From IMG/VR virus record IMGVR_UViG_3300028591_000077: DNA of 64,000 nt. One strand, 5' to 3'. Both the position numbers and the translations under genes were made by a program. The notes under the pieces are model-generated. The model was given only the letters and a program-made list of their open reading frames with translations. It was not told the DNA's origin and made no database searches. This document shows positions 280 to 13,923 of this stretch, in pieces. Position 1 is the stretch's first letter. Every line of letters begins with the position of its first letter. The DNA is from a virus. Its lineage: Duplodnaviria; Heunggongvirae; Uroviricota; Caudoviricetes.

Positions 280-365
280 AAAATTATGTTTTTTTATTTT
301 ATGTAAAAAAATTAAAAAATAACTGTATAATATAATGTGCAAAGATAAAGCACACAAAAACTCGA

Positions 366-416
366 GAGCCTATACTTATTTCTTCAGAAATATGGTATTC
401 TAAAAACAGTTAGGCC
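366..416 (+). ncRNA. Bulged-stem element 3
   Basis: GA GCCTA T ACT TATTTC ... AGT TAGGC C. Confidence 0.75.
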
Positions 417-520
417 AATTACTTATTAAATAATGTAGGCGCTTGAGGTAGATCTGGATTCAGTTATACTTCGGCGCCTTTATTTAATAAAAATCTTGGG
501 TAAACAGAAAAGGAGATTTT

Positions 521-2476
521 ATGGGAAAACCAACAATCAAATCAATCTTAGCCGCTCGTCATTATTTAATTGTCGATAAGGCCCCAGAAGACAAGAACAT
601 GTCTGCCTATTACAATGCATTTTTGCTTGCTAATTTTGGCGTCATCGTTGATCGTCCTCACATGTTAACTCGTGAAGCAGTTAACGTTATCGCTGATACT
701 TTTAAGCTTAACGTTCCAGCAAGCTTCTACGATAACCCTCAACACATGGCTTATTTTTCTAAGTCAGAATTGCTTATCGAGCAACTCGTTTCCTATTTCT
801 TAGTTGAAACCGGAACTGGAATCTATAGCCGTCCTGAAATCTTTGAAAAGGATTTACCTGAGTATAAAGTCGGCAACGAAATCAAACTTCGTGAATTCAG
901 AATCGTCAATGCAGAGGAAGCAGTTGAAATCCTTAAAGGCATCTGCGATGCTTTCTGTGATTACACTCGTCCATTCTCTATCGATGAATTAGCTGAGTTC
1001 GAATATCTTTTCGTCAACGGTTATTACACCGGAAAAGAAATCAAATGCCGCGATAACATCTTTACTCTTTTGAAGCACGATGCAAGCTTTGCGCGCTTCT
1101 TGGATAAGAAAGATATGGTTAAGCTTTCTATCGCTTTCTTCGGGGAGCACAGAGAGTTTAGACCTGCAGATGAGGAAAAACTCGCTCTTATCAGAACTTG
1201 CTTACCTTACGTCCGTAATTGCCCAATGAGCAAAAAGCAAGCTAAATACTACAATAAGCTTCTTTCATACTGCAAAGTCAAAGGCGATGCTGCAGACAAT
1301 GCACGTTCTCCTTATAGACTTGCAAAAGTTGAACTTGACAAGGGTAATGTTTTAGGCGCCGCCGAAATCTTCGCCCGTAATGGTTCTTTACTTGAAAGAA
1401 ACATCAAGTTCTTGCTTTCAAGAGCTAACCCTGTCGAAGCCGTTAAGATCATCGAAATGCTTCCAGCAAAGAATCCAATGGTTCTTTATCAGATGATTTC
1501 AGCTATGTCTGAAGACAAGACAGATGGACGTGTATTCTCCTTTACTAAAAATAATAAGGTAAAACGTCATGTTGAAACCGATTATGAAGCTAAATGGAGA
1601 AAGTCCAAGCTCAACGACGCTACTAAGACTTTACTTCACGATATCGCTATCGAGAAGATCAAAGACTCTTATAGAGCAATGGGTTCTTTAGGTAAAGTTT
1701 ACGTCTCCGACGCATTTAACTTACTTGGAATCCCATCCAATACATCTGCTGGTGGAAAGGGCATCGATGTTCTTCCAACCGGTTCTCGTATCGTCTGCCC
1801 ATTCAACAAAATCCGCACTTTCGTTTACTGGGACGGAATCCGCGACGTTGACGCTTCCTTGGTTTTAGTCAAGAAAGACGGTAGACAAGATACCATTTAC
1901 TATGGTAACTACTCCAGCAAGCCATTTGGCACCAGCATTCTCTTCTCTGGAGACTGCCGTGATGTCAAGGGTTCTGAATACTACGATTTAGACTTAGACG
2001 AACTTCGTGCTAAGGGCTACGTCTCAGTTCTTTACACCCTTAATGGCTTCGGTGGAAAATTCACTCAAGGCGAAACCTTCTGTGGATACCAAAACAAAGA
2101 AGACCTTAAGACTCGTGCTTGGGATCCTAAAAACATCGCAATGCAGTTCAGAGTCGCTGGTGATTCTTCTCAAGTCCTTGCCTTCGGTATCGATTTAGAG
2201 ACAAATGCAGTGGTCGTCTTGAACCTTGTTCGTGATGCTTACAACAGAACTGTCAACTCCAGTGAAACAGATTCTGTCGCTAAGTACATGAAAGCAAGCT
2301 TCTTAGAGCTTAACATGGGCTTAGTTGCTTCATGCAGAGGCGAAGTCGTAACTGACCCAGCCGAAGCTGATATCGTCTTTGACGACAGCTATATGCCTCT
2401 TGAAGGTCAAAAGGTCGTAAGAACTTATGATCTTGAAAAGCTCGTTGCTATCGCAAATGGAGGGGAGGTAAAATAA
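521..2476 (+). CDS. Large protein with C-terminal TerD-like domain and helical N-terminal region (possibly TROVE/Ro-like)
   Basis: 651 aa, AGGAG RBS; C-terminal ...VYWDGIRDVDAS...FSGD...GSEYYDLDLDEL... resembles TerD fold; the N-terminal assignment is inference. Confidence 0.6.
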   Translation: MGKPTIKSILAARHYLIVDKAPEDKNMSAYYNAFLLANFGVIVDRPHMLTREAVNVIADTFKLNVPASFYDNPQHMAYFSKSELLIEQLVSYFLVETGTGIYSRPEIFEKDLPEYKVGNEIKLREFRIVNAEEAVEILKGICDAFCDYTRPFSIDELAEFEYLFVNGYYTGKEIKCRDNIFTLLKHDASFARFLDKKDMVKLSIAFFGEHREFRPADEEKLALIRTCLPYVRNCPMSKKQAKYYNKLLSYCKVKGDAADNARSPYRLAKVELDKGNVLGAAEIFARNGSLLERNIKFLLSRANPVEAVKIIEMLPAKNPMVLYQMISAMSEDKTDGRVFSFTKNNKVKRHVETDYEAKWRKSKLNDATKTLLHDIAIEKIKDSYRAMGSLGKVYVSDAFNLLGIPSNTSAGGKGIDVLPTGSRIVCPFNKIRTFVYWDGIRDVDASLVLVKKDGRQDTIYYGNYSSKPFGTSILFSGDCRDVKGSEYYDLDLDELRAKGYVSVLYTLNGFGGKFTQGETFCGYQNKEDLKTRAWDPKNIAMQFRVAGDSSQVLAFGIDLETNAVVVLNLVRDAYNRTVNSSETDSVAKYMKASFLELNMGLVASCRGEVVTDPAEADIVFDDSYMPLEGQKVVRTYDLEKLVAIANGGEVK

Positions 2477-2670
2477 TGCCTGCTACTCCAACCGATGCTG
2501 AAACATTACGTCTTCTTGCTAGGCGCGTTGAACGCCTAGCAGAAGAGTATGAACACAATGCTCCGACATTAATCAAAACCACAGAGCTTAGATTAATCAA
2601 TGAAGCATGTCAATCATTGCTTGATAGCTTAGAAGCTGAATTAGATGCAAAACAAGGGCAAGAAAATTAA
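2476..2670 (+). CDS. Hypothetical protein
   Basis: 64 aa, overlaps upstream stop (TAATG), GGAGG RBS. Confidence 0.7.
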   Translation: MPATPTDAETLRLLARRVERLAEEYEHNAPTLIKTTELRLINEACQSLLDSLEAELDAKQGQEN

Positions 2671-2740
2671 TCTTGCCCTTTAATTTTTAAAAAATTTATT
2701 GTATTATAAAATATAAGGAAAAACATTCGCTAAATTAAGT

Positions 2741-2848
2741 ATGAGACATTCAGTTATTACATTACAACGCACAGCAACAACCGTAGCGACATTAGATATA
2801 GCCGCTGCGATTTTAGACGTGCAAGATTCTGGAGGAATCCACAAGTAA
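2741..2848 (+). CDS. Leader peptide 1 (35 aa, MRHSVITLQRTATTVATLDIAAAILDVQDSGGIHK)
   Basis: Follows GCTAAATT motif; codons 5-29 are only V/I/T/L/Q/R/A/D, matching the downstream tRNAs. Confidence 0.8.
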   Translation: MRHSVITLQRTATTVATLDIAAAILDVQDSGGIHK

Positions 2849-2932
2849 TTAAAACTGGTTGTTAAAACTCTTAATAAACTATCGTATAATATAATGCAGC
2901 AAACCTGCATGGTACGATAGGCTAAATCGGTA

Positions 2933-2968
2933 ACTTGTGGGTTCGCGAATAGCGAACCCTATTTATTT
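2933..2968 (+). terminator. Attenuator terminator 1
   Basis: GGGTTCGC-GAATA-GCGAACCC then T-rich tail; 2933-2944 also pairs with leader 1 end 2835-2846. Confidence 0.75.
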
Positions 2969-2980
2969 GGAAAAAAAGTG

Positions 2981-3009
2981 TTTACAAAAGATTAATTCTA
3001 TTGTATAAT
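2981..3009 (+). promoter_or_regulatory. sigmaA-type promoter (same architecture at 5221, 7678, 18624)
   Basis: TTTACA-17 nt-TATAAT, with TG just upstream of the -10. Confidence 0.8.
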
Positions 3010-3029
3010 AATACTGGAGCTGCTGAAAT

Positions 3030-3105
3030 GGTTCCTTACGTCAATTGGGAGACTATCATCCTTACAAGATGAAGGTTGCAGGTCCGAGTCCTGCAGGGAC
3101 CACCA
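3030..3105 (+). tRNA. tRNA-Val(TAC)
   Basis: Cloverleaf, CCA, T-loop TCCGAGT. Confidence 0.9.
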
Positions 3106-3110
3106 ATTAT

Positions 3111-3186
3111 GCTGGTTTAGCTCAGTTGATAGAGCAGCTCCCTCGTAAAGAGCAGGTCGGGAGTTTGAGCCTCTCAACCAGCACCA
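3111..3186 (+). tRNA. tRNA-Thr(CGT)
   Basis: Cloverleaf, CCA, T-loop TTTGAGC. Confidence 0.85.
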
Positions 3187-3190
3187 ACAT

Positions 3191-3265
3191 TGGGATGTAG
3201 CCAAGCGGTAAGGCAGGAGGCTTTGAACCTCCGATGCGCTGGTTCGAACCCAGCCATCCCAGCCA
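3191..3265 (+). tRNA. tRNA-Gln(TTG)
   Basis: Cloverleaf, CCA. Confidence 0.95.
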
Positions 3266-3499
3266 ATTAGAATATGACAGCCGAAAAGATCGCCACTTAG
3301 TAAGCTTGAATAGAGTAGGACTGATAGCTTCCGAATAAGCTATCATGTATAACATGCTGAGACAAGATTCTCAGAAGGGTTGACTTGACGCCATAGGTTC
3401 AAGCAGAGGGTACAGCGCAATTTCTACGTAGTTGTTGCCGAGGCCAAATAGTGCAGGCATGGGAAGAAAGCACTCTAAAAAATGTGCAACACCAGATAT

Positions 3500-3574
3500 T
3501 GAGAAGTCGTCAAGCGGTAAGACGCCTGTCTCTGAAACAGGTCATCGATGGTCCGAATCCATCCTTCTCAGCCA
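3500..3574 (+). tRNA. tRNA-Gln(CTG)
   Basis: Cloverleaf, CCA, T-loop TCCGAAT. Confidence 0.9.
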
Positions 3575-3665
3575 TTACCTATTTGCTCATACTAGTTGAG
3601 AGCAGACAAAAAAGAACGCTAGGTGAAACAAATTTTTAAAGGTTTAGGTTTGGAGTAGCCAATTT

Positions 3666-3750
3666 GCGGGTGTGGTGAAACAGGTAGACGCAAGGGACTT
3701 AAAATCCCTCGGCTTCGGCCGTGTCGGTTCGAGTCCGACCACCCGCACCA
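3666..3750 (+). tRNA. tRNA-Leu(TAA)
   Basis: Long variable arm, CCA. Confidence 0.95.
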
Positions 3751-3753
3751 TAT

Positions 3754-3814
3754 GGGTTTATAGTAAGCTCTGGTGAGCAAGCGCGCAAGTTCGGTTCGAT
3801 TCCGGAATAAACCC
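3754..3814 (+). ncRNA. tRNA-like RNA lacking an anticodon arm
   Basis: GGGTTTAT/ATAAACCC acceptor, GCTC-TGGT-GAGC D-like arm, TTCGG-TTCGATT-CCGGA T arm. Confidence 0.55.
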
Positions 3815-3920
3815 TAAACCAAGAATGGATTCTGGTGAATCCGAGTAGGTGAAGAAGAGTTCGAGTCTCTGAACTGTCTGGTTCGATTCCTGGCAGTGCA
3901 GGTGCAAATCCTACAACATT

Positions 3921-3995
3921 GGTCGTATAGCTCAATGGCAGAGCGGGCTCCTTATAAGGGCTAGGTTCCTGGTTCGAATCCAGGTGCGACCACCA
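3921..3995 (+). tRNA. tRNA-Ile(TAT)
   Basis: Cloverleaf, loop CT TAT AA, CCA. Confidence 0.9.
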
Positions 3996-3999
3996 ATAT

Positions 4000-4074
4000 G
4001 GGCCGATAGTTTAATTGGGAAAACACCCGCCCTGCAAGCGGGAGTTACGGGTTCAATTCCCGCCGTGTCCACCA
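4000..4074 (+). tRNA. tRNA-Ala(TGC), irregular acceptor stem
   Basis: Loop CC TGC AA, G3:U70 present, bulged acceptor. Confidence 0.6.
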
Positions 4075-4079
4075 AATAT

Positions 4080-4155
4080 GGGGCTGTAACTCAGCTGGGA
4101 GAGTGCCTGCTTTGCAAGCAGGATGTCGAGGGTTCGATCCCCTTCAGTTCCACCA
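4080..4155 (+). tRNA. tRNA-Ala(TGC)
   Basis: Canonical cloverleaf, CCA. Confidence 0.95.
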
Positions 4156-4364
4156 AGGCGAAGGACAACGCTTAATAACCAGTCTCATAAGCGAGAGTAT
4201 GGGTAACCAGTCCCAGAGGGTAGTGAAAGAGACAAGAATATAAGGAAAGAACCGGGATTACGCCTTATCGCGAATGGGCGCCCAATGAACCCCTAGAGAC
4301 GGTGAAGCTGCAGACTAGATAACGAGCTAAGGGGAAGTGTGGAGTAAATACCTTATATTATCAT

Positions 4365-4440
4365 GCCGCCATAGCTCAACTGGCAGAGCAATCGCCTTGT
4401 AAGCGATAGGTTGATGGTTCGATTCCGTCTGGCGGCACCA
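4365..4440 (+). tRNA. tRNA-Thr(TGT)
   Basis: Canonical cloverleaf, CCA. Confidence 0.95.
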
Positions 4441-4568
4441 GTTCAGATATTTCTGAATCGTGAGCTGACACGTATAAATCCGACACAAAGCCGCAAGAAA
4501 TGGGCGGCAACACTAATTAGTCGTAGGTGACGGACACCAGAACAAAATCAGCATCATATAACTAAATT

Positions 4569-4642
4569 GCCTCTTTAGTTAAATGGTATAACGAATCCAT
4601 GGTAAGGATTAATCGGCGGTCCGATTCCGTCAAGAGGCACCA
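4569..4642 (+). tRNA. tRNA-Thr(GGT)
   Basis: Cloverleaf, CCA, T-loop TCCGATT. Confidence 0.9.
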
Positions 4643-4650
4643 TTAAATTT

Positions 4651-4725
4651 GGGTCAGTAGGCTAACGGTTAAACTGTCGCACTGTCACTGCGATGTCGAG
4701 GGTTCGACTCCCTCTTGGCCCGCCA
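4651..4725 (+). tRNA. tRNA-Asp(GTC)
   Basis: Cloverleaf, GCCA end. Confidence 0.9.
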
Positions 4726-4730
4726 TATAT

Positions 4731-4826
4731 GCAGTTGTGATGCAACTTAGAAGACATCCTTGGTGATGAGCCGAGGTCAACGCAAATCGAAATAATTTGT
4801 TGAAGGTGCAAATCCTTCCATCCGCA
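4731..4826 (+). pseudogene. Degenerate class II (Leu-like) tRNA
   Basis: T arm GAAGG-TGCAAAT-CCTTC, mismatched acceptor, non-canonical anticodon loop TGATGAG, no CCA. Confidence 0.5.
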
Positions 4827-4833
4827 ACAATTT

Positions 4834-4908
4834 GGAGTCATAGTACAGCGGTTAGTATACCTGACTGTCACTCAGGAGATGAGGGTTCAACTCCCTCTGG
4901 CTCCGCCA
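4834..4908 (+). tRNA. tRNA-Asp(GTC)
   Basis: Cloverleaf, GCCA end. Confidence 0.95.
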
Positions 4909-4911
4909 TTA

Positions 4912-5036
4912 GAACCAGTACTTATTTCTTTTTCGCCTTACATGCGAGAGGTCGTTGGTTCGAGTCCAACCGTCGCGGCACGGGTGACGTGTAGCGACGT
5001 AGCTCAGTTGGGAGAGCGCTTATTACTAGTCTGGTC
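4912..5036 (+). ncRNA. Bulged-stem element 4: circularly permuted tRNA-Val(TAC) body with closed acceptor hairpin
   Basis: 3' half (anticodon, T arm, CGTCGC) at 4934-4976 precedes 5' half (GCGACG, D arm) at 4994-5020; ACCAG/CTGGT stem. Confidence 0.85.
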
Positions 5037-5043
5037 AAAATTT

Positions 5044-5119
5044 GGGGTTGTAGCTCAATTGGGAGAGCACTTGTCTGGCAGACAAGAGGTTGCGGGTTCA
5101 ATCCCCGTCGATTCCACCA
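5044..5119 (+). tRNA. tRNA-Ala(GGC)
   Basis: Cloverleaf, CCA. Confidence 0.9.
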
Positions 5120-5123
5120 ATAT

Positions 5124-5201
5124 ACCCTGTTAGCTCAGCTGGATTAGAGCGTGTGGCTACGAACCACAAGGTCGTGGGTTCGAATCCTACACAGGGTGCC
5201 A
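5124..5201 (+). tRNA. tRNA-Arg(ACG)
   Basis: Cloverleaf, CCA. Confidence 0.9.
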
Positions 5202-5313
5202 AAAAAATTATACAATACTATTTACTTTTTAGAAAAAATATTGTATAATATAATAAGCGAGCAAAAAAGATTCGCTAAATTAAGTAGTCGCAAGACAGAA
5301 AGGTAGTTAACGT

Positions 5314-5403
5314 ATGAAAAACTTGAACATGCATGCTTATCATTACGGATTTGAAGGCTATGAAGGCTTCGGTTTTTTGATGCGCTCTGACCACCGATAT
5401 TAA
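5314..5403 (+). CDS. Leader peptide 2 (29 aa, MKNLNMHAYHYGFEGYEGFGFLMRSDHRY)
   Basis: GAAAGG RBS; codons 9-23 are only Y/H/G/F/E/L(TTG)/M, matching the downstream tRNAs. Confidence 0.85.
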   Translation: MKNLNMHAYHYGFEGYEGFGFLMRSDHRY

Positions 5404-5437
5404 TTAGTAAATTCGTCGCATTGAAAATATAAAACAA

Positions 5438-5469
5438 GGGTGGTCAGATAATGATCACCCTTTAATTTT
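5438..5469 (+). terminator. Attenuator terminator 2
   Basis: GGGTGGTCA-GATAA-TGATCACCC-TTTAATTTT; 5439-5448 is the exact complement of 5386-5395. Confidence 0.85.
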
Positions 5470-5471
5470 AT

Positions 5472-5556
5472 GGGTAGGTAGGTAAGTGGCTAAAACCAGC
5501 TGTCTGTAAAACAGCCGCCTTCGGCTTCGTGTGTTCGAATCACACCCTGCCCACCA
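5472..5556 (+). tRNA. tRNA-Tyr(GTA)
   Basis: Long variable arm, CCA. Confidence 0.9.
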
Positions 5557-5560
5557 CTAT

Positions 5561-5646
5561 GGGAGCGTATTCCGTTAAGGACACGGGGCAGTCTGTAAAA
5601 CTGTTGCCATTCGGCTGGCTGAGTTCGATACTCAGAGCTCCCACCA
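5561..5646 (+). tRNA. tRNA-Tyr(GTA)
   Basis: Long variable arm, CCA. Confidence 0.85.
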
Positions 5647-5650
5647 ATAT

Positions 5651-5727
5651 GGTGTATGGAATCCGACGGTTTTGGATGCTAGTCTGTGAAACTAGATCAT
5701 TGGGTTCAACTCCCAGCATGCACCCCA
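5651..5727 (+). tRNA. tRNA-His(GTG)
   Basis: G-1:C73 pair, CCA. Confidence 0.85.
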
Positions 5728-5732
5728 GTCAT

Positions 5733-5808
<76 letters not shown>

Positions 5809-5812
5809 TTAT

Positions 5813-5889
5813 GCTCCTCTAGCCCAACTGGTAGAGGCAATGAGCTCAAACCTCATTCAGTGTCGGTCCGAATCCGACGGGGAGTACCA
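5813..5889 (+). tRNA. tRNA-Leu(CAA), short variable loop
   Basis: Loop CT CAA AC, 5-nt variable region, T-loop TCCGAAT. Confidence 0.85.
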
Positions 5890-6030
5890 AAAAGATTATA
5901 AAATACTTACCAAAGTATTGTATAATATAATAGCTTCAAAGTGCTGGAAGTTGTGGCACGCGTATTGAGAGGTTGCAAACTCGAAAATATGAGGGGTTAG
6001 GTAGGGTCTGACTGAAGCTTCCATTTACAT

Positions 6031-6116
6031 TGCGGTAGAGTGGAACGGACAATTATAAACCATCCGCGGCTCATAACCGATGGGATACCGGGTTCGACTC
6101 CCGAGTACCGCAACCA
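6031..6116 (+). tRNA. tRNA-fMet(CAT)-like, enlarged D loop
   Basis: Ends CCGCAACCA as initiator tRNAs do; loop CT CAT AA. Confidence 0.7.
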
Positions 6117-6210
6117 GAGGCGTGTTGTTTGTCAATTTAAACCTTACCTCGCGCACAAGGCGTAAAAATTGAAGGCTTAAGATGTTGTGCCAGAACAAAG
6201 CATCATCCAT

Positions 6211-6286
6211 GGCCGAGTAGCTCAGCGGTTAGAGCAGGGAGCTCATACCTCCAAGATCGGTGGTCCGAATCCACTCTCGGCTACCA
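6211..6286 (+). tRNA. tRNA-Met(CAT), probably elongator
   Basis: Loop CT CAT AC, ends GGCTACCA, T-loop TCCGAAT. Confidence 0.85.
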
Positions 6287-6363
6287 GGATATATATTCAA
6301 TTTCGCCAAGACTAGAGCACAGCCATTCATAAGGGCTGTGTAGGAGAATCCCTTGGCAACCAT

Positions 6364-6437
6364 GCAGACGTAATTCAATGGTAGAATGCCACCTTGCCAT
6401 GGTGGCTACACGGGTCCGATTCCCGCCATCTGCTCCA
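6364..6437 (+). tRNA. tRNA-Gly(GCC)
   Basis: U73 CCA, T-loop TCCGATT. Confidence 0.85.
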
Positions 6438-6557
6438 TCAATAGAATTAACAAAGGCCACGTTAATTTCAGTGAAACTCTGATAGTGGAAGACAGAATCT
6501 AAAAAGTAGCCGTCGAGCAAGCAGGCTCCACAATAAATAAACATCGCTTGCCACCAT

Positions 6558-6632
6558 GCGGGTATCGTCCAACGGTCAGGGCCTCTGCCTTCCAAGCAGA
6601 AGATACCGGTTCGATTCCGGCTACCCGCTCCA
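6558..6632 (+). tRNA. tRNA-Gly(TCC)
   Basis: Cloverleaf, TCCA end. Confidence 0.95.
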
Positions 6633-6704
6633 CCAGGACAGACAGAGATTAGGTTCTCTGTGAGGTTCTACGGCTGGACAAATCGATAAAACCAGCCAAT
6701 ACTT

Positions 6705-6778
6705 GCGGGAATAGGACAGTGGTAGTCCATCTGCTTGCCATGCAGACTACGCGGGTTCGATTCCCGTTTCCTGCTCCA
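6705..6778 (+). tRNA. tRNA-Gly(GCC)
   Basis: Cloverleaf, TCCA end. Confidence 0.9.
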
Positions 6779-6784
6779 TTAAAT

Positions 6785-6862
6785 CGTCCCGTAGACGAAC
6801 TGGTTAAAGTCATCACCCTTTCAAGGTGAAATCTGGGGGTTCGAGTCCCCTCGGGATGACCA
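6785..6862 (+). tRNA. tRNA-Glu(TTC)
   Basis: Cloverleaf, CCA. Confidence 0.9.
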
Positions 6863-6874
6863 TTTAAAATTTTA

Positions 6875-7101
6875 GAGCCTATACTTATTTCTAGGACTGA
6901 AAATCCCCGTGTCCCTAGTTCGAATCTAGGCTCTCCCACCATAGGAGCCAATACTTATTTCGGATTCCGCGGTAGCTTAAAAGGTAAAGCCCCCGATCTA
7001 TAATCGGGAGATTGTCGGTTCAAGTCCGACCCATGGCATTGTGAGTTTGGCCACTTTGGGAGAGTAGCTCAGTTGGTAGAGCAGGAGTTAATAGTTAGGC
7101 C
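6875..7101 (+). ncRNA. Bulged-stem element 5: circularly permuted tRNA-Phe(GAA) with a nested element
   Basis: 3' half with CCA at 6894-6941, 5' half GGGAGAG+D arm at 7058-7085; outer GCCTA/TAGGC stem. Confidence 0.9.
6945..7052 (+). ncRNA. Nested bulged-stem element 5b enclosing a tRNA-Ile(TAT)-like cloverleaf (about 6966-7038)
   Basis: GA GCCAA T ACT TATTTC ... AGT TTGGC C; CCCGA-TC TAT AA-TCGGG anticodon arm, T arm, no CCA. Confidence 0.8.
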
Positions 7102-7243
7102 TTTTTTATTAAAAAATATCGTATTATATAAAGAAACGAAAAATATTCGCTAAATTATTTGGTACTTGTCTTCCTTAGCGGTACGACTTAATCCAGGGAT
7201 ATTCAGGAGATATTACCGATACAAAGATTAAGCAAGAAAGATT

Positions 7244-7323
7244 TAGACTAAACTTATTTCAAAGCCTTAGTCCCACAGGGACTATATAAAAATGAAGATC
7301 AAAATTGGCCGCACAGTTAGTCA
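7244..7323 (+). ncRNA. Bulged-stem element 6
   Basis: GACTA A ACT TATTTC ... AGT TAGTC. Confidence 0.7.
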
Positions 7324-7456
7324 AAGTATTGTTCTAAAATTGTTTATAATACGCCTGAGTGGTACGACTTGTTGGAACTTATAATTAAAACCTCGTTCGC
7401 GATGCAGCTAACAAAGAGCGTCAATTAATTATAAGGAAAGATAAGCAAAAAGGGCA

Positions 7457-7529
7457 GAAACTACACTTATTTCAAATTTTTCTAATCTACACTTACCATA
7501 GAAAAATTGGCCACGACAATAGTTAGTTC
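7457..7529 (+). ncRNA. Bulged-stem element 7
   Basis: GA AACTA C ACT TATTTC ... AGT TAGTT C. Confidence 0.7.
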
Positions 7530-7562
7530 GTATTTCATAAAAAATATCGTATAATATTTATA

Positions 7563-7645
7563 GAGCTTATGCTTATTTCAAATGGTTATAGAAGGTTCGA
7601 TTCCTTCACCGTCCGCCAATCCCGGACAGTGATATTAGCTAGGCC
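7563..7645 (+). ncRNA. Bulged-stem element 8: permuted T-arm/acceptor mini-helix with GCCA
   Basis: GAAGG-TTCGATT-CCTTC-ACCGTCC-G-CCA then GGACAGT; GCTTA/TAGGC stem. Confidence 0.75.
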
Positions 7646-7735
7646 AAAAAAATATTTGTAAAAAAATTAAAAAAATATTTACAAAACAAAAAAAGTATTG
7701 TATAATATTTATGTAAGCAAGTTAAGCAAGCTTGC

Positions 7736-8342
7736 TTCGAGTGTTCTTTGAGAAAGGATTTATGTTGAACCATGTGCAGAGGGATTACCTCCTTGCATGG
7801 AAGTTGGCTAAATAACGCGATAAATTGTGGGATACTGCAATGTAAGCTAAGACCTGTATTGAAAGATACGGGTATTCCTGTCAAAACGTGATCATTGACA
7901 GGCTAAGCTGATTGTGCAACATGTTATGGTACACAAAGCAATTCTGTCTAGGCTCGTCCGATAAGAGGCTCTGGGAGCAATCTCATCCCGCCTGTGGAAT
8001 TAAGCCTGAGAAACTTAGTTCCCGGCATCTCAACCTAAGGATAGTGACGTTTTGAAGCGGCGAAAGCCGTGTATAAGAGCTGACAGAAGTACGAGTAGCC
8101 GTATGACGTCGTTCGATCAAGTATAAAATTGAAGAATGTGATTAATTTCTTCCTTGCTGAAGTTCGGTGAAAGTTGGGGGACATCAATTCCCTCTATTGT
8201 TCGGTGCTAGTCACCAATTTGTGAAGACCAAGGTCGCGCCTTGGCTCTCAGCCACAAGTTAATATGTGCGAATATGTGGAATAATAAGTGTTGTAAGATG
8301 AATAAAAGTCTCGCTTAGATCATTTCTCAAAGAATACTCGAA
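7736..8342 (+). ncRNA. About 600-nt structured ncRNA (ROOL-like candidate)
   Basis: 20-bp terminal helix 7736-7755/8323-8342, promoter immediately upstream, many internal hairpins, no ORF. Confidence 0.65.
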
Positions 8343-8393
8343 AAATAAAATGCTAAATTAATTAGACAAATGTGTCAGAAGGAGAGCAAAAGT

Positions 8394-8480
8394 ATGTTAA
8401 GATTAGCTTCTATCAACGTTAAGCCTATTAGCATTCTCAAACCAGTTTGGGAAAATTTTGACATGCTTGTAGCTCAGTAA
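8394..8480 (+). CDS. Leader peptide 3 (28 aa, MLRLASINVKPISILKPVWENFDMLVAQ)
   Basis: AAGGAG RBS after GCTAAATT; I/V/K/P/W-rich core matches the downstream tRNAs. Confidence 0.8.
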   Translation: MLRLASINVKPISILKPVWENFDMLVAQ

Positions 8481-8518
8481 AGACCGTAAGTCCGATTAAA
8501 TCAATTAGACAAAAGATC

Positions 8519-8553
8519 CCCGCAGAGACTACAAGCTCTGCGGGTTTTATTTT
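8519..8553 (+). terminator. Attenuator terminator 3
   Basis: CCCGCAGAG-ACTACAAG-CTCTGCGGG-TTTTATTTT; 8525-8536 pairs with leader 3 end 8465-8475. Confidence 0.85.
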
Positions 8554-8631
8554 CGGGAAGTAGCGTAGCTTGGTTATCGCGCCTGATTTGGGATCAGGAG
8601 ATCAAGGGTTCGAATCCCTTCTTCCCGACCA
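8554..8631 (+). tRNA. tRNA-Pro(TGG)
   Basis: Canonical cloverleaf. Confidence 0.95.
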
Positions 8632-8632
8632 A

Positions 8633-8747
8633 GAGCTCATACTTATTTCTAGCATTGGGAGCCGGTGTTTGCAGGTTCGAGTCCTGCCTCCCCGACCATT
8701 ATCGGGGAGTAGGCAAATTGGTAAAGCCGCTGTTTAATAGTTGAGCC
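8633..8747 (+). ncRNA. Bulged-stem element 9: circularly permuted tRNA-Pro(TGG)
   Basis: 3' half with CCA at 8652-8698, 5' half CGGGGAG+D arm at 8703-8732; GCTCA/TGAGC stem. Confidence 0.9.
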
Positions 8748-8767
8748 TTAAAAAATCTATTATTATA

Positions 8768-8829
8768 GAGCCTATACTTATTTCCGCCAAGAGGCAATTT
8801 CCTTTTAAGAAATCTATGATAGTTAGGCC
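8768..8829 (+). ncRNA. Bulged-stem element 10 with a Lys(TTT) anticodon stem-loop
   Basis: ATTTC-CT TTT AA-GAAAT at 8797-8813. Confidence 0.8.
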
Positions 8830-8835
8830 ATTAAT

Positions 8836-8911
8836 GGGCTCTTAGCTCAGTTGGGAGAGCATCTCCTTGACGTGGAGAGGGTCGTCAGTTCGAGCCTGGC
8901 AGAGCCCACCA
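8836..8911 (+). tRNA. tRNA-Val(GAC)
   Basis: Cloverleaf, CCA. Confidence 0.95.
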
Positions 8912-9011
8912 TTAATAGAGAATATTAGGAGAAGGAAAACTCCATAAACCCTTATAGCTTCGTTCTTAGCCAGACGTAGACTAAGATAGAGTTAAACTAA
9001 TGATACAATAT

Positions 9012-9088
9012 CCGGAGTTAGTTCAGTTTGGTAGAACACTTGATTTGGGATCAAGGGGTCGTGAGTTCGAATCTCACATTTCGGACCA
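9012..9088 (+). tRNA. tRNA-Pro(TGG)
   Basis: Cloverleaf, CCA. Confidence 0.9.
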
Positions 9089-9092
9089 ATAT

Positions 9093-9169
9093 TGGAGCGT
9101 AGCTCAGTCGGTCAGAGCGCTGTGCTGATAACGCAGAGGTCGCCGGTTCGATCCCGGCCGCTCCAACCA
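9093..9169 (+). tRNA. tRNA-Ile(GAT)
   Basis: Cloverleaf, CCA. Confidence 0.95.
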
Positions 9170-9173
9170 ATAT

Positions 9174-9247
9174 AGGGGCTTGGTATAGTGGCCGTGCCTT
9201 GGTCTCCAAAACCAATGAGGTGAGTTCGATTCTTACAGCCCCTGCCA
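9174..9247 (+). tRNA. tRNA-Trp(CCA)
   Basis: A1:U72, G73, loop CT CCA AA. Confidence 0.9.
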
Positions 9248-9252
9248 AACAT

Positions 9253-9329
9253 ACTCCCTTAGCTCAGCTGGCCAGAGCAACTGACTCTTAATCAGTGGGT
9301 CCAGGGTTCGAATCCCTGAGGGAGTACCA
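9253..9329 (+). tRNA. tRNA-Lys(CTT)
   Basis: Cloverleaf, CCA. Confidence 0.95.
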
Positions 9330-9351
9330 ATTTATGAGGAGGTCGATATTA

Positions 9352-9555
9352 ATGAGATTCAATTGTAGAGTAATCTGGGTTGATCCTGTTAAGAATCGTC
9401 GTCAGTTCACAGACGTCGGTCCAAGTTATGCAATCTTCATCGCCAAAAAGAAAGTTAGCGAAGGAATGCAAGACGTAACGATTCAAGTAACTGGCGAAGA
9501 CGGCGACGACCCTTCTGACTGTAGTTGGCCACCAATTGATGCTGAGGTGGCGTAA
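9352..9555 (+). CDS. Hypothetical protein (start revised from the track)
   Basis: AGGAGG RBS before ATG 9352; the longer ORF start overlaps a tRNA. Confidence 0.6.
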   Translation: MRFNCRVIWVDPVKNRRQFTDVGPSYAIFIAKKKVSEGMQDVTIQVTGEDGDDPSDCSWPPIDAEVA

Positions 9556-9589
9556 ATAAACAATAAGCATTAGAAATGGAGAAAAAGCT

Positions 9590-9658
9590 ATGATGAAAAT
9601 GACACTAAAACTCAAATCCAAAAAACTCAAACGTTTTCGTTGTGGCTTAATTGCTTAG
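9590..9658 (+). CDS. Leader peptide 4 (22 aa, MMKMTLKLKSKKLKRFRCGLIA)
   Basis: GGAG RBS; six AAA codons plus CTA, CTC x2, TCC. Confidence 0.8.
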   Translation: MMKMTLKLKSKKLKRFRCGLIA

Positions 9659-9692
9659 GATTCAACGTCATCTTGATTATGAATGTATTGAC

Positions 9693-9728
9693 TGCCGAGG
9701 TAATTAAGCTTATCTCGGCATTTATTAT
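9693..9728 (+). terminator. Attenuator terminator 4
   Basis: TGCCGAG...CTCGGCA-TTTATT; 9698-9709 pairs with leader 4 end 9645-9656. Confidence 0.75.
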
Positions 9729-9803
9729 GCGTCCATAGCCAAGCGGTATGGCAATCGGCTTTTAACCGATGTACCGGGGGTTCGAATCCTCCTGGGCGCA
9801 CCA
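9729..9803 (+). tRNA. tRNA-Lys(TTT)
   Basis: Cloverleaf, CCA. Confidence 0.9.
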
Positions 9804-9807
9804 TAAT

Positions 9808-9886
9808 GCGCGCTTAGCTCAGTTGGTTTTAGAGCATACGACTTTTAATCGTAGGGTCCGGAGTTCGAATCTCCGAGCGCGCACCA
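9808..9886 (+). tRNA. tRNA-Lys(TTT)
   Basis: Cloverleaf, CCA. Confidence 0.95.
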
Positions 9887-10003
9887 ATTAGCTATCTCAT
9901 CTTACAATTACGATACACGTGGCGGACAGGAATCACAAAAAGCGGGTTCTTTTGTAAGATTGGATATATTAATACTGTATAATATATAGAAGGAGTTGCT
10001 AAA

Positions 10004-10183
10004 ATGGAAAAAGAAAAAGTAAATTATTGTTTACCAATTGATTTCCCGATGTATGACATGTGTCATTGTTGTGCTGATTGCGCTACGCTGTGCGCTCGTA
10101 AAAATGCGCCTGTAGAACGTATCTGTACTATGAGTGATTTCAGCTCTATATGCTCTAGTTATACAGCAAAAGAAGAAAAGTAG
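10004..10183 (+). CDS. Small Cys-rich protein (59 aa)
   Basis: AAGGAG RBS, promoter upstream, CHCCADC..C motif; not in the ORF track. Confidence 0.6.
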   Translation: MEKEKVNYCLPIDFPMYDMCHCCADCATLCARKNAPVERICTMSDFSSICSSYTAKEEK

Positions 10184-10184
10184 T

Positions 10185-10529
10185 ATGTTTGACAACGATT
10201 TTGATGATGATTTAGATGAGTTATTGCTTAATGCAAAACCTAAATTGCCTGACCCTTACTTTGACCCAAAATATCCTGAGATTAAAGAGGGTGTTAAGTT
10301 TACACCAATTGAACGCAGTATAGAATATTCTGTCTATACAATCAAAGACGCTCATGCAGTAGACAACAAAGTTAAGGTAAGCGAAGTTATCTATACTTGG
10401 GGCACAGGCTATTATTCAAGGCTAAATAAAACGCCATTTGAATGCGAGCTAGACAGAGACGATTTGTGCAGTTCGCATAGCCCTGCTTGCCAAGGCAAAA
10501 AGAAAACATTTAATTGGAGACAGAACTAG
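10185..10529 (+). CDS. Hypothetical protein
   Basis: ATG directly after the previous stop; 3' end overlaps tRNA-Ser(CGA). Confidence 0.55.
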   Translation: MFDNDFDDDLDELLLNAKPKLPDPYFDPKYPEIKEGVKFTPIERSIEYSVYTIKDAHAVDNKVKVSEVIYTWGTGYYSRLNKTPFECELDRDDLCSSHSPACQGKKKTFNWRQN

Positions 10530-10603
10530 GAGCGGCCTCCTAGCCTGCCTCGAAAGCAGAGTGTTCAGAAATGAATGGGGATCGACACCTCCTGTCTCCG
10601 CCA
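10516..10603 (+). tRNA. tRNA-Ser(CGA), 8/4 acceptor/T-stem type
   Basis: GGAGACAG/CTGTCTCC 8 bp, 4-bp T stem, G73 CCA, long variable arm. Confidence 0.75.
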
Positions 10604-10637
10604 TCATCGAAAACGTCATTGAAGAAAACTTGACGAT

Positions 10638-10725
10638 GGAGGGTAATCCTGGACAGTCTGGGGCACGCCTGGAAAGCGTTGCGTAGGAGTAATCCTATCT
10701 GAGGCGGCATCAGTGCCCTCCGCCA
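10638..10725 (+). tRNA. tRNA-Ser(GGA), 8/4 type
   Basis: GGAGGGTA/TGCCCTCC 8 bp, CTGA/TCAG T stem, G73 CCA. Confidence 0.75.
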
Positions 10726-10734
10726 AATAATTAT

Positions 10735-10818
10735 GCCCGAGTGGTGGAATGGTAGACACGCTGCGCTTAGAACGCAGTGCCGCAAGGTGTGCAGGTTCAA
10801 GTCCTGTCTCGGGTACCA
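10735..10818 (+). tRNA. tRNA-Leu(TAG)
   Basis: Long variable arm, CCA. Confidence 0.95.
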
Positions 10819-10870
10819 TAACCAAATTGGATACTGTTTGTCGAAAGGTAACCAAATTGGATACATATAT

Positions 10871-11261
10871 GGGCTCGTACTGGTTTCGATTGGTATTTGA
10901 TGTTTATAACTACAGCAAGCTGATAACTTACTATCAAACAAAAACAAACGACAAAACTTTAAACCCTGCATTTATTGCCTCCAACAGATTCGTTGGTGCT
11001 CGCGCCTAATTTAAGGCCATAGTAGTCGAGAAGTAAAACTGAGTTAGATTGGTCGAGTTTAACTCTTTATAATCAGACCTCGGTCAAGAGAACATTAGCT
11101 TTATTAGATATCTTGATTTAAATCAATAAATAAGCTATCTGCGCGCCCCGTTGTGTTTGAAAAGGAGCGGACAGAGAAATATTCATGAACACATAAAGCT
11201 GTAATTGACGTTATAGGGGTTTGGTATCAAGACCGGGGTTCGACTCCCCGCGGGTCCACCA
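10871..11261 (+). ncRNA. ssrA: tmRNA
   Basis: GGGCTCG...GGTTTCGA 5' end, G3:U acceptor, T arm and CCA 3' end, tag frame ...KTNDKTLNPAFIASNRFVGARA*. Confidence 0.9.
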
Positions 11262-11266
11262 TATAT

Positions 11267-11353
11267 GCGCGAGTGGCGGAACTGGTAGACGCGCCAGCCT
11301 AAGGAGCTGGTGCCCGAAAGGGCGTGTGGGTTCGAGTCCCACCTTGCGCACCA
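11267..11353 (+). tRNA. tRNA-Leu(AAG)
   Basis: Loop CT AAG GA, long variable arm. Confidence 0.9.
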
Positions 11354-11369
11354 TTATTAGGAGAAAACT

Positions 11370-11672
11370 ATGAATCTTCAAGAATTAATCGAACATGGCT
11401 ATGTAGAAAAAGTTGAAACTGAATCAACTTATTTGGGCGCTGGCTATAAAGTTTATGTAAAATTGCATAATTATTCTATTGGTAGAATTACCATTGACAT
11501 CGGTATTGATGAAAATCTTTCTGATGCGATTACTTTAATTAATAAAATGATTGAAGTTGATGAAGAAATTGGTAAGAATAAAAAGCCAAAAGAAAAGCAT
11601 ACAATCAGAAAAGCAACTGATGAAGAAATAAAAAAACTTCTTGATGATTCAAAACAAGTTTTTAAAGATTAA
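11370..11672 (+). CDS. Hypothetical protein
   Basis: AGGAG RBS, 100 aa. Confidence 0.75.
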   Translation: MNLQELIEHGYVEKVETESTYLGAGYKVYVKLHNYSIGRITIDIGIDENLSDAITLINKMIEVDEEIGKNKKPKEKHTIRKATDEEIKKLLDDSKQVFKD

Positions 11673-11690
11673 TATCGTATATTATTACAT

Positions 11691-11787
11691 AGGGGATTAC
11701 GATAATTGGCAAGTCCGTCGGTCTTCAAAACCGATCAATCCGGCTCCAACCCGGAGAGCGCGGGTTCGATTCCTGCATCCCCTGCCA
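11691..11787 (+). tRNA. UGA-decoding tRNA (anticodon TCA), Trp-like acceptor with long variable arm
   Basis: AGGGGAT/ATCCCCT-G-CCA, TCGGT-CT TCA AA-ACCGA, TCCGG/CCGGA variable stem. Confidence 0.85.
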
Positions 11788-11790
11788 GTA

Positions 11791-11847
11791 GAGCCTATGC
11801 TTATTTCAAAAACATCAGACTGCAACTCCGATTAATGAAGCTAGGCC
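11791..11847 (+). ncRNA. Bulged-stem element 11 with a Cys(GCA) anticodon stem-loop
   Basis: ATCAGA-CT GCA AC-TCCGAT; loop identical to that of tRNA-Cys at 19780. Confidence 0.8.
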
Positions 11848-11872
11848 ATTATTTTTAGAAAGGCGATAATAT

Positions 11873-12541
11873 ATGAATAAAAGAGTAAAAACGTTTCTAT
11901 TTGCAATTTTTGCCGGTATTGCCATTGGCGTCGGCGGATTGCTTTTTATTTTATCAAAAACATATATTCCAGGTAATTGGGGTAATATTGTCGGTTCGTT
12001 GTTATTCCCGGTTGGATTAATTACAATTTGCTATTGTAAATTTAATTTATATACTGGAAAAATTGGCATTGCTCCAAATAAAGGTGTAAATACTAATGAT
12101 TTGAATGTATTTGAGTGGCTAGCTTGGATTCTATTAGGCAATATTGTCGGAGCGTTTGCCTTTGGATTGTTAGTTTATCCATTCACTTTGCTTGGAGGAA
12201 GCTTCGCCGATACCGTCCATGCTATTGGGTTAGCAAGGGAAACCATGGATCCGATTTCAATGGCTGGAACATCTGTCTTATGCGGAATCTTAGTTTATAT
12301 TGCGGTTTATTTCTTCAATAAGTCTGATGAGTACTTCGGCAAAGTCGTCGGTGTCTTGGTTCCTATTGCGTTCTTCGTATTAGCCGGATTTCAGCACTGC
12401 GTTGCCAATATGTTCTATATGGCGGCTTCTGGTAGTTGGACATTGGCGTCTACTCAAGCACTAGTAGGTTGTATCTTAGGTAATTCTTTCGGTGGATTGC
12501 TTGCCAATTTGCCGGTTGTATATTTTAAAGGAGCTAAATAA
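11873..12541 (+). CDS. Formate/nitrite transporter (FNT, FocA/NirC family)
   Basis: FPVGL...LYTG and AGFQHCVANMFY motifs, multiple TM helices. Confidence 0.9.
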   Translation: MNKRVKTFLFAIFAGIAIGVGGLLFILSKTYIPGNWGNIVGSLLFPVGLITICYCKFNLYTGKIGIAPNKGVNTNDLNVFEWLAWILLGNIVGAFAFGLLVYPFTLLGGSFADTVHAIGLARETMDPISMAGTSVLCGILVYIAVYFFNKSDEYFGKVVGVLVPIAFFVLAGFQHCVANMFYMAASGSWTLASTQALVGCILGNSFGGLLANLPVVYFKGAK

Positions 12542-13182: not shown

Positions 13183-13263
13183 CATAGAAAAAAAGCACAA
13201 CCACAGTGATGTGGCGTCGCAAAGCTATAGGGCCTTGGAGGAAGGCAGCCAGTTGCTTCTGTG
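13183..13263 (+). promoter_or_regulatory. c-di-GMP-I (GEMM) riboswitch
   Basis: GCACAA-CCACA GTGA TGTGG-CGTCGCAAAGCTATAGGGCC...GGCAGCCAGTTGC matches the GEMM core; lies in the 5' UTR of the operon. Confidence 0.8.
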
Positions 13264-13305: not shown

Positions 13306-13923
13306 ATGAAATTAAGAAACAAATTAGCAGCTATCACAGCTGCAGCAATGTTAGCATTTACTGGCGTTGGTTTTGCTGCATGGACATTTGCTAATGAAAA
13401 ATCAGCTAATGTTGGTGGAGACAATGTTGTTACTTGTGCAGTTGAAACAAAGAACTTAGTTATTGATGAAGGTTATACTAAATTATATTTAATTTTTGAT
13501 GCGCCAGCAGCTGGAACTACTGGTTCATTAAAGGCTGGTGAAGGTATTTTCTTTGCAACAGATAAAGAGCCAGATGCTGAAACCGGATTATATACTAAAG
13601 TTACATCTCTTACATTAACTGGTTCATTTGAACATACAGATAATGATGCTCATTACAACCATGCAGTAAGTTATACTTTTGATTGCACACCTACTAATAC
13701 TTTAAGTGCTACTTATGTAACACAAACAGCTGCTGGAAGCTTCGATGCAAATGTAACAGGAGCAACTTCAACTTTTACAGATGTTTCAACTGTTTACACA
13801 CTTCCAACATTTGATTATACTGCTGCGGTTAAAGCTTACAATCATGCGTCAGAAATGTCTGCTATGATTACTTCTTTAAATGACTCAGAAGTATCATTTG
13901 CATTTACGTTTAATATTGACTAA
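13306..13923 (+). CDS. Secreted protein with SipW-type signal peptide (TasA/camelysin-like)
   Basis: MKLRNK...GVGFAAWTF N-terminus; adjacent to signal peptidase. Confidence 0.6.
   Translation: MKLRNKLAAITAAAMLAFTGVGFAAWTFANEKSANVGGDNVVTCAVETKNLVIDEGYTKLYLIFDAPAAGTTGSLKAGEGIFFATDKEPDAETGLYTKVTSLTLTGSFEHTDNDAHYNHAVSYTFDCTPTNTLSATYVTQTAAGSFDANVTGATSTFTDVSTVYTLPTFDYTAAVKAYNHASEMSAMITSLNDSEVSFAFTFNID

Follow-up and report, generated by a model that had tools for sequence, protein, structure and literature searches.

The design closest to the element reported here is that of the YrlA Y RNAs (Rfam RF02553), in which a terminal stem made from the 5′ and 3′ ends of the RNA encloses a permuted tRNA-like module (T arm, acceptor and D arm), and in which the genes for the RNA and for its protein are adjacent and share a strand, the RNA often being co-transcribed with tRNAs and located near RNA-repair genes. 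In Mycobacterium smegmatis, RNase P cleaves YrlA, to which CCA is added, and the two halves remain associated with Rsr (Chen et al. 2014, PMC4201824). We describe here a unit of similar construction at positions 8632–8747 (+ strand) of a 64,000-nucleotide stretch of viral DNA (Caudoviricetes, IMG/VR record IMGVR_UViG_3300028591_000077; the whole stretch is referred to as the window), in which a complete tRNA-Pro(TGG) is encoded in circularly permuted order. The unit is a member of an undescribed small-RNA family of rumen and gut jumbo phages and Firmicutes metagenome-assembled genomes (MAGs), each member consisting of a handle (an 8-bp helix with one bulged U, made from the two ends of the RNA and followed on its 5′ side by single-stranded UAUUUC) which clamps a variable cargo of tRNA parts. 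On balance we favour the view that this RNA is a Y-RNA-like mimic of tRNA, probably opened by RNase P at C1, and that it is more likely to represent a new tRNA-mimicking RNA–protein particle than a tRNA gene whose product is cut and re-joined.

The YrlA-type permuted module is present in the Pro unit, and the neighbourhood of the protein gene linked to the handle (encoding a 651-aa protein with an α-solenoid and a TerD-fold domain) parallels the rsr-yrlA-rtcBA arrangement. The YrlA model matches the Pro unit weakly at 8663–8733 (26 bits, E 0.018, model positions 23–86, which is the tRNA-like part) and this falls short of the YrlA gathering score of 69 bits. There are further differences: the Rsr-binding GNCGAAN0-1G is absent from the Pro unit, where the 5′ strand reads AGAGCUCAUACUUAUUUC, as well as from the consensus of 85 family elements, and the linked protein combines an α-solenoid with TerD rather than TROVE with vWA. 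No TROVE domain (PF05731) was found in five of five related phage genomes, in the ten largest open reading frames (ORFs) of the window or in 32 homologues of the linked protein. Neither TROVE nor EndA is encoded by four relatives with near-complete genomes. The Pro unit also has a full anticodon arm and an encoded CCA, neither of which is found in YrlA, and the cargos of the handle can be as small as a bare anticodon hairpin or as large as a whole tRNA, with many copies per genome (13 in the window). By analogy, we suggest that the Pro unit works like a Y RNA without being a member of the YrlA family.

Permuted tRNA genes are reportedly found in Cyanidioschyzon merolae, some green algae and Thermofilum pendens. 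These are similar to the Pro unit in that the 3′ half comes before the 5′ half, position 1 follows the CCA or acceptor end after a short linker, the flanks pair, and the junction is in the anticodon arm. They differ in relying on a bulge-helix-bulge, an EndA-family endonuclease and a circular intermediate, whereas the Pro unit has no bulge-helix-bulge, belongs to a virus of a bacterial host with relatives lacking EndA, and is enclosed by flanks which also enclose cargos that are not tRNAs. In the split tRNA genes of Nanoarchaeum equitans the two halves are separate transcripts which are joined by EndA and a ligase. There, too, a complementary helix outside of the tRNA body unites the halves, but the Pro unit is a single transcript in permuted order from a bacterial virus. 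The permuted tRNAs found in our literature search were all from algae, archaea or engineered substrates, and the search returned nothing on the handle or the linked protein.

A complete tRNA-Pro(UGG) in permuted order

The first 22 kb of the window is a tRNA array containing 43 genes called by ARAGORN plus a tmRNA, a ROOL RNA and a c-di-GMP-I riboswitch, and collagen-repeat tail-fibre genes mark the contig as that of a large phage. The Pro unit starts directly after the CCA of a normal tRNA-Pro gene (8554–8631) with AGA (8632–8634), the near-invariant unpaired 5′ flank of the handle. This is followed by the 5′ strand of the handle, GCTCA-T-ACT (8635–8643), which comprises a 5-bp variable stem, the bulged U and a 3-bp RCU stem and pairs with 8739–8746, then by TATTTC (8644–8649), the conserved single-stranded UAUUUC, and a 2-nt linker, TA (8650–8651). 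Direct reading of the + strand then finds tRNA positions 30–76 including CCA, TTAT, and positions 1–29 occupying 8652–8732. The 3′ half (8652–8698; read directly and from the ARAGORN call on the re-joined form) runs from G30 and C31 through the loop ATTGGGA (anticodon UGG, with G37), GCCGG, the variable loop TGTTT and the T arm GCAGG-TTCGAGT-CCTGC to CTCCCCG, A73 and CCA. The spacer TTAT (8699–8702) separates CCA from C1 and places a U at −1, and the 5′ half (8703–8732) continues with CGGGGAG, U8 and A9 (TA), the D arm GGCA..AGCC, G26, and C27 U28 G29. From G29 a second linker, TTTAAT (UUUAAU in the RNA; 8733–8738), leads to the 3′ strand of the handle, AGT-TGAGC (8739–8746), which is followed by the near-invariant +1 C at 8747. 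All of these features are on the + strand.

Re-joining the halves at 29|30 produces a canonical 77-nt tRNA-Pro(UGG), called as tRNA-Pro(tgg) by ARAGORN, with complete acceptor (7/7), anticodon (5/5) and T (5/5) stems. It retains U8, A14, G18G19, the A15:U48 pair, U33, G37, TTCGAGT, C1-G72 and A73, although in the genomic order no tRNA is called here by either ARAGORN or Rfam RF00005. A first-pass annotation made from the sequence had proposed a complete circularly permuted tRNA-Pro(TGG) with a CCA, a 4-nt spacer and a 29|30 junction at 8633–8747, and all of this is borne out by the direct reading and the ARAGORN call, with these coordinates corresponding to the whole handle-to-handle unit. The tRNA-Pro cargo is entered at a nick-like opening in the anticodon stem, which leaves its anticodon loop, acceptor end and overall L shape intact. 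The minimum free energy fold of 8630–8750 closes the handle helix and forms the T arm and acceptor hairpin (z = −3.1), with the handle joined to the tRNA body through flexible linkers of 8 nt and 6 nt.

The quality of the re-joined tRNA raises the alternative that the unit is a true permuted tRNA gene. In this case the handle would align the ends, the flaps would be cut off at the 29|30 nick and a ligase (for example an Rnl2-type enzyme or the RtcB of the host) would seal it, and the resulting circular or two-piece intermediate would be opened between CCA and C1 by RNase P and 3′ trimming to give a normal translating tRNA-Pro. Such a gene would explain why re-joining gives a flawless tRNA-Pro with the full set of ProRS identity elements and an encoded CCA, and the junction falls inside a duplex, which is the preferred substrate of Rnl2-type ligases. 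Ligases of the PF09414 family were found in four of the five related phage genomes, and a Pnk/phosphatase/Rnl1 fusion and Thg1 are encoded near the TerD gene in relatives. Open units of this kind, with an encoded NCCA end, also recur across several phages. Against this, there is no 3-4-3 bulge-helix-bulge at the flanks of the unit, which instead form a 5 + 3 bp helix with one bulged U followed by unpaired linkers; EndA (PF01974) is absent from all five relatives (positive controls were obtained in four archaea) and to our knowledge bacterial hosts have no EndA; RtcB is found in one of the five; and a PF09414 ligase is missing from one complete relative that carries an open unit. We also know of no endonuclease that trims such flaps, and there are two ordinary tRNA-Pro(TGG) genes flanking the unit within 400 nt (called by ARAGORN), a redundancy which supports a mimic rather than a further gene. 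We therefore regard a true permuted tRNA gene as unlikely. A specific version of it, in which gut Firmicutes jumbo phages would have a bacterial type of permuted-tRNA maturation with handle-guided flap removal, Rnl2-like sealing and RNase P opening, possibly chaperoned by the TerD-solenoid protein, seems to us a shade more doubtful still.

The same neighbourhood bears on the possibility that the unit is a non-functional relic of two tandem tRNA-Pro copies that were truncated by recombination or by insertion of the handle repeat, so that the 3′ half of one copy would now be followed by the 5′ half of the other across a normal TTAT spacer. TTAT is the same kind of 4–5 nt spacer as found between the ordinary tRNAs of the array (ttat, atat, taat, acat and attat), tandem duplication is a textbook route to permuted genes, and tRNA-like debris is found elsewhere in the array (3751–3920 and 5557–5732). 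However, all of the stems of the Pro unit are intact, the conserved tertiary nucleotides are kept, and the body differs from both of the neighbouring tRNA-Pro genes and is therefore not a recent duplicate. The breakpoints also coincide exactly with the covarying handle, and the combination of a 29|30 junction, a GC lower stem and NCCA with a short linker recurs in unrelated contigs (e.g., L151:2200 and L042:3867). We consider a relic very improbable.

It should be noted that no orthologue of the exact Pro unit was recovered. Its acceptor hairpin has no exact match in IMG/VR, and a megablast search of 8000–12000 against GenBank phages returned stray tRNA matches only. A pattern based on the handle/anticodon junction gave 27 matches in JGI metagenome contigs, all of which were dismissed as chance matches inside unrelated genes. 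No terminator was found between 8554 and 9400.

Covariation of the handle and the variety of its cargos

The 9-mer ACTTATTTC is found as nine exact copies in the window, all of them on the + strand and within 374–8784 in the tRNA-array part, compared with the approximately 0.5 exact copies of a 9-mer that we estimate would be expected in 128 kb. Allowing for a G in the first position and for one TACTTC variant, there are 13 handle copies in the window, all on the tRNA strand, and each of these has a downstream pairing partner in which the 5′ S5-N-RCT is matched by AGY-S5′. The S5/S5′ pairs include GCCTA/TAGGC, GCTCA/TGAGC (the Pro unit), GCCAA/TTGGC, ACCAG/CTGGT, GACTA/TAGTC and ACCTA/TAGGT, and the 3-bp stem varies between ACT/AGT and GCT/AGC, with TCT/AGA (UCU/AGA) in the most distant copies. 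A search of IMG/VR by pattern found 117 loci giving 85 unique bracketed elements in large phage contigs, with 24 different S5/S5′ stem combinations, though covariation counted on this alignment is partly circular because the elements were picked by requiring a partner. An unbiased test was provided by 77 unique motif copies chosen for the preceding AGA and so independently of pairing: a perfect 8-nt Watson-Crick partner was found within 250 nt downstream of 70 of these, and for none of the 77 in either control, one of which scored parallel ‘pairing’ and the other of which looked on the upstream side. The five single non-Watson-Crick pairs of the handle are too few for G-U versus A-C to prove the strand. 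The handle is a real covarying helix which carries TATTTC on its 5′ strand. A mobile element or palindrome acting at the DNA level had been considered as an explanation of the repeats and was ruled out by the strand-specific copies and the covarying stem, as there is no single terminal-repeat sequence.

The consensus of the handle is AGA-S5-U-RCU-UAUUUC ... AGY-S5′-C, and the Pro unit matches the pattern by which we provisionally define the family, AGA-S5-N-NCU-UAUUUC ... AGN-S5′-C with complementary S5 and S5′. The AGA flank is conserved as A78/G83/A84 in the 85 unique elements and, like the bulged U and the C that follows the stem, it is conserved without having been required by the search patterns. 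UAUUUC was fixed by the pattern in the earlier searches; when the hexamer was left free, CTTATTTC recurred in every recovered bacterial MAG copy linked to a TerD gene, with one copy reading TACTTC. Within arrays, handle elements sit exactly between one CCA end and the 5′ end of the next tRNA.

The first-pass annotation had noted that the 3′ half starts 2 nt after TATTTC in the Pro and Phe copies, and took TATTTCTA to be a processing boundary which defines the end of the tRNA. The 2-nt spacing is correct for both of these copies but is not a rule of the family, as the first tRNA nucleotide may follow TATTTC at a spacing of anything from 0 to 11 nt, and the junction varies from 26|27 to 31|32 (placed with an explicit stem/loop parser, as running ARAGORN on all trimmed re-joinings was too permissive). 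Similarly, the flanking motif does outweigh tRNA position, as had been suggested, but it is one strand of the covarying closing helix rather than a ruler for a cut. The proposed boundary also finds no support in the same helix bracketing anticodon hairpins, T-arm minihelices and sealed acceptors, in the variable distance and junction position, or in the enzymes of the relatives described above, where EndA is absent and RtcB is rare, so that neither cutting nor joining has a consistently encoded enzyme.

The cargos fall into several classes. Permuted tRNA bodies with an open acceptor, in which NCCA is followed by a 1–6 nt linker, are represented by the Pro unit and by L021:2901, L042:3867, L046:7846, L074:970 and L151:2200, and in two further cases, the Phe copy of the window and L076:10897, a complete handle element is nested in place of the linker. 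The Phe copy is a permuted tRNA-Phe(GAA) with CCA (6874–7101, + strand) in which the nested element (6944–7052) lies between its CCA and G1. A second class consists of permuted bodies with a sealed acceptor, where an arbitrary loop replaces the open end and there is no CCA, and these carry Asn GUU, Lys UUU, Thr UGU, Arg UCU, Val UAC and Glu-like anticodon loops; the window example is a Val(UAC)-like body (4911–5036, + strand; YrlA model 31 bits). ARAGORN calls a ‘tRNA-Val(tac)’ at 4904–4979 which in fact corresponds to the 5′ handle and 3′ half of this sealed unit. Other cargos are T arm plus acceptor minihelices, such as the one with GCCA that makes up the whole cargo of the element at 7562–7645 (+ strand), and tRNA-like bodies in normal order. 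The shortest, of about 30 nt, are an anticodon stem-loop alone, sometimes with a D arm in front, and their loops are dominated by CUUUUAA (8 copies) and UUUGGGA/U (at least 7 copies). The array element following the Pro unit is of this type (8767–8829, + strand), with a short D-arm-like hairpin and an anticodon hairpin with the loop CUUUUAA (Lys UUU). Three further short-cargo elements are found at 133–200, 224–279 and 365–416 (+ strand). Two sealed permuted bodies, L021:2735 and L036:3548, are near-identical except for the anticodon (GTT versus TTT), and from their sequences it looks as if one scaffold has been re-used to display different anticodon loops.

This variety favours a mimic, in that some of the cargos borne by one and the same handle could not be tRNA genes, and it counts against a true permuted gene in two ways. 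First, both the handle and the 29|30 design enclose bodies which can never become tRNAs, and the sealed members share the 29|30 junction and the GC lower stem with the Pro unit, which suggests that the design serves to keep the anticodon arm intact and does not specify a site of ligation. Second, neither the distance from motif to junction nor the position of the junction is fixed. The open acceptors, in comparison, look processed, judging from their sequences, with NCCA followed by a 1–6 nt linker or a nested element, a U at −1 (in seven of nine open units) and, in the Pro unit, the array-type TTAT spacer. The range of the segment from CCA to position 1, from 1 nt to a whole nested element, is what might be expected of a segment that is discarded.

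The linked protein and the proposed particle

A local tblastn comparison of all window ORFs with the element-bearing loci singled out one gene, at 521–2476 (+ strand), which encodes the 651-aa protein and is directly preceded by the three short-cargo elements (handle copies within 133–416). Homologues were found in 13 of 25 motif-selected loci, with approximately 47–75% identity (most at about 50%) over near full length, and these were always flanked by handle elements on the same strand. The linkage is also seen when only the protein is used to pick the loci: all six metagenome contigs of phage type, two of which have no tRNA gene nearby, have a handle no more than about 150 nt from the gene, and so do approximately 18 of 22 loci from bacterial MAGs (Clostridia, Christensenellaceae, Bacilli and Mollicutes). 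In these MAGs there is a single handle copy, which occupies the 5′ leader of the gene. Each of the five related phage genomes encodes the protein once, and the family has more than 500 homologues, all unnamed and with no Pfam domains. An AlphaFold model (pLDDT 82.7) predicts an N-terminal α-solenoid and a C-terminal TerD β-sandwich. We had considered whether the protein might be a TROVE/Ro60 protein and rejected this, as there was no Pfam match, no PDB sequence match and only generic solenoid matches. We regard it as a candidate handle-binding partner.

The neighbours of this gene differ between phage relatives and bacterial MAGs. Those in phage relatives include a Pnk-phosphatase-Rnl1 fusion, a CCA-adding enzyme, YqeY, PhoH and Thg1, with a 744-aa kinase-metallophosphatase-Rnl1 fusion (L118 6729–8963) and a CCA-adding enzyme (L119 2608–4092) each a few kb upstream of the TerD-solenoid gene. 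The neighbourhoods in bacterial MAGs are heterogeneous (recombinases, NYN, GNAT and DnaG), with no conserved operon partner among them; in one Clostridia MAG the next gene encodes an NYN ribonuclease with an OST-HTH domain (L168 4899–5687), and in two MAGs the TerD-solenoid cassette is flanked by serine recombinases.

Taken with the Pro unit, the conservation of the handle and its linkage to a protein allow a further alternative to be weighed, in which the handle would be a mere processing or stability clamp, or a cis-regulatory leader, that shields by-products of the array from exonucleases or marks RNase cleavage sites, without a dedicated protein and with the permuted tRNA being incidental. 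Paired termini do stabilise small RNAs, and the placement of elements exactly in between neighbouring tRNAs is consistent with a clamp, as is the single copy in the TerD-gene 5′ leader of bacterial MAGs with a cis-acting role. However, the single-stranded UAUUUC, AGA and +1 C are conserved in every recovered copy from phages and Firmicutes MAGs (bearing in mind that the hexamer was fixed in the earlier searches), which suggests that they are specifically recognised. Loci without any tRNA also show the linkage to one protein family, and the cargos are biased to intact tRNA modules rather than being random spacers. We judge this explanation to be rather unlikely.

We propose instead that the Pro unit forms part of a tRNA-mimicking RNA–protein particle. 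The RNA would be co-transcribed with the flanking tRNA genes and freed by the normal 3′ and 5′ processing of these tRNAs. RNase P would then cut at U8702|C8703 (U-1|C1) and TTAT would be trimmed back to CCA, leaving a tRNA-like RNA in two pieces which the acceptor stem and the handle would keep together, as has been shown for the YrlA of M. smegmatis. Binding of the handle by the TerD-solenoid protein would give a particle similar to that of Ro60 and Y RNA, showing a tRNA-Pro look-alike which may be chargeable, and the RNA would not be re-ligated into a translating tRNA. We speculate that the particle may be a bait, decoy or tether directed at tRNA-acting enzymes, a suggestion prompted by the bias of the loops towards Lys(UUU) and Pro(UGG) and by the RNA-repair neighbours.

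Several points weigh against such a particle. The Pro unit keeps every feature of a working tRNA-Pro, including C1-G72, A73, CCA, G35 G36 G37 and, once the halves are joined, an anticodon stem of exactly 5 bp, and this is more than a mimic obviously requires. Given that no orthologue was recovered, conservation of the exact Pro unit itself is unsupported. The association of the protein with the handle is one of gene neighbourhood, making its RNA-binding role putative, and a handle upstream of the gene could be a cis-acting leader of that gene and not a trans-acting partner RNA. The N-terminal domain on its own matches only generic helical repeats (Foldseek E ≥ 0.05; VIA Z ≤ 6.8). Finally, expression, the ends of the RNA, cleavage by RNase P and binding by the protein are steps that we infer. 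We looked for RNA in three rumen metatranscriptome runs plus one DNA run, all as assembled contigs, and found the Pro unit at a depth of 2–4 in the metatranscriptome contigs, with no 8732-to-8652 back-joint listed at that depth, a result that counts neither for nor against processing. One 151-nt RNA contig starts at 8703 (C1), and as a single low-depth record from one study this was given no weight.

Should the proposed particle be correct, it would represent a second and unrelated solution to the Ro60/Y-RNA idea in bacteria and giant phages, in which a protein-binding RNA handle displays tRNA look-alikes that here extend to a complete and perhaps chargeable tRNA-Pro. The RNA-repair neighbours and the lean towards Lys(UUU) and Pro(UGG) make a role in conflicts over tRNA cleavage or modification testable. 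If the unit were instead a true permuted tRNA gene, it would belong to the first such system in the bacterial world, outside of the archaea and eukaryotes. For annotators, units of this type are missed by tRNA finders, and for RNA biologists the handle family provides a natural set of circularly permuted tRNAs.

Other features of the tRNA array

The array also contains a ROOL RNA at 7746–8331 (Rfam, 210 bits), the contig of which has a depth of approximately 100–600 in the three metatranscriptome runs compared with 2–13 for the neighbouring array. A tmRNA (tag DKTLNPAFIASNRFVGARA) and a tRNA-SeC(TCA) are found at 10871–11261 and 11691–11787, respectively. Intergenic T-arm-like or tRNA-like pieces without handle bracketing are present at 3751–3920, 5557–5732 and 6090–6210, and Rfam matches tRNA at 5652–5724 (41 bits) and tRNA-Sec at 5561–5642 (30 bits). 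The 99-nt ‘tRNA-His(atg)’ called by ARAGORN at 4730–4828 looks aberrant. A promoter-like box, (T)ATCGTATAATAT / TTGTATAATAT, recurs before array segments and handle elements (e.g., 2900–2920, 5240–5260 and 7545–7560, and L122 2790–2810). The c-di-GMP-I riboswitch aptamer at 13184–13260 (46.8 bits) is located just upstream of an ORF (13306–13923) which matches no Pfam family.
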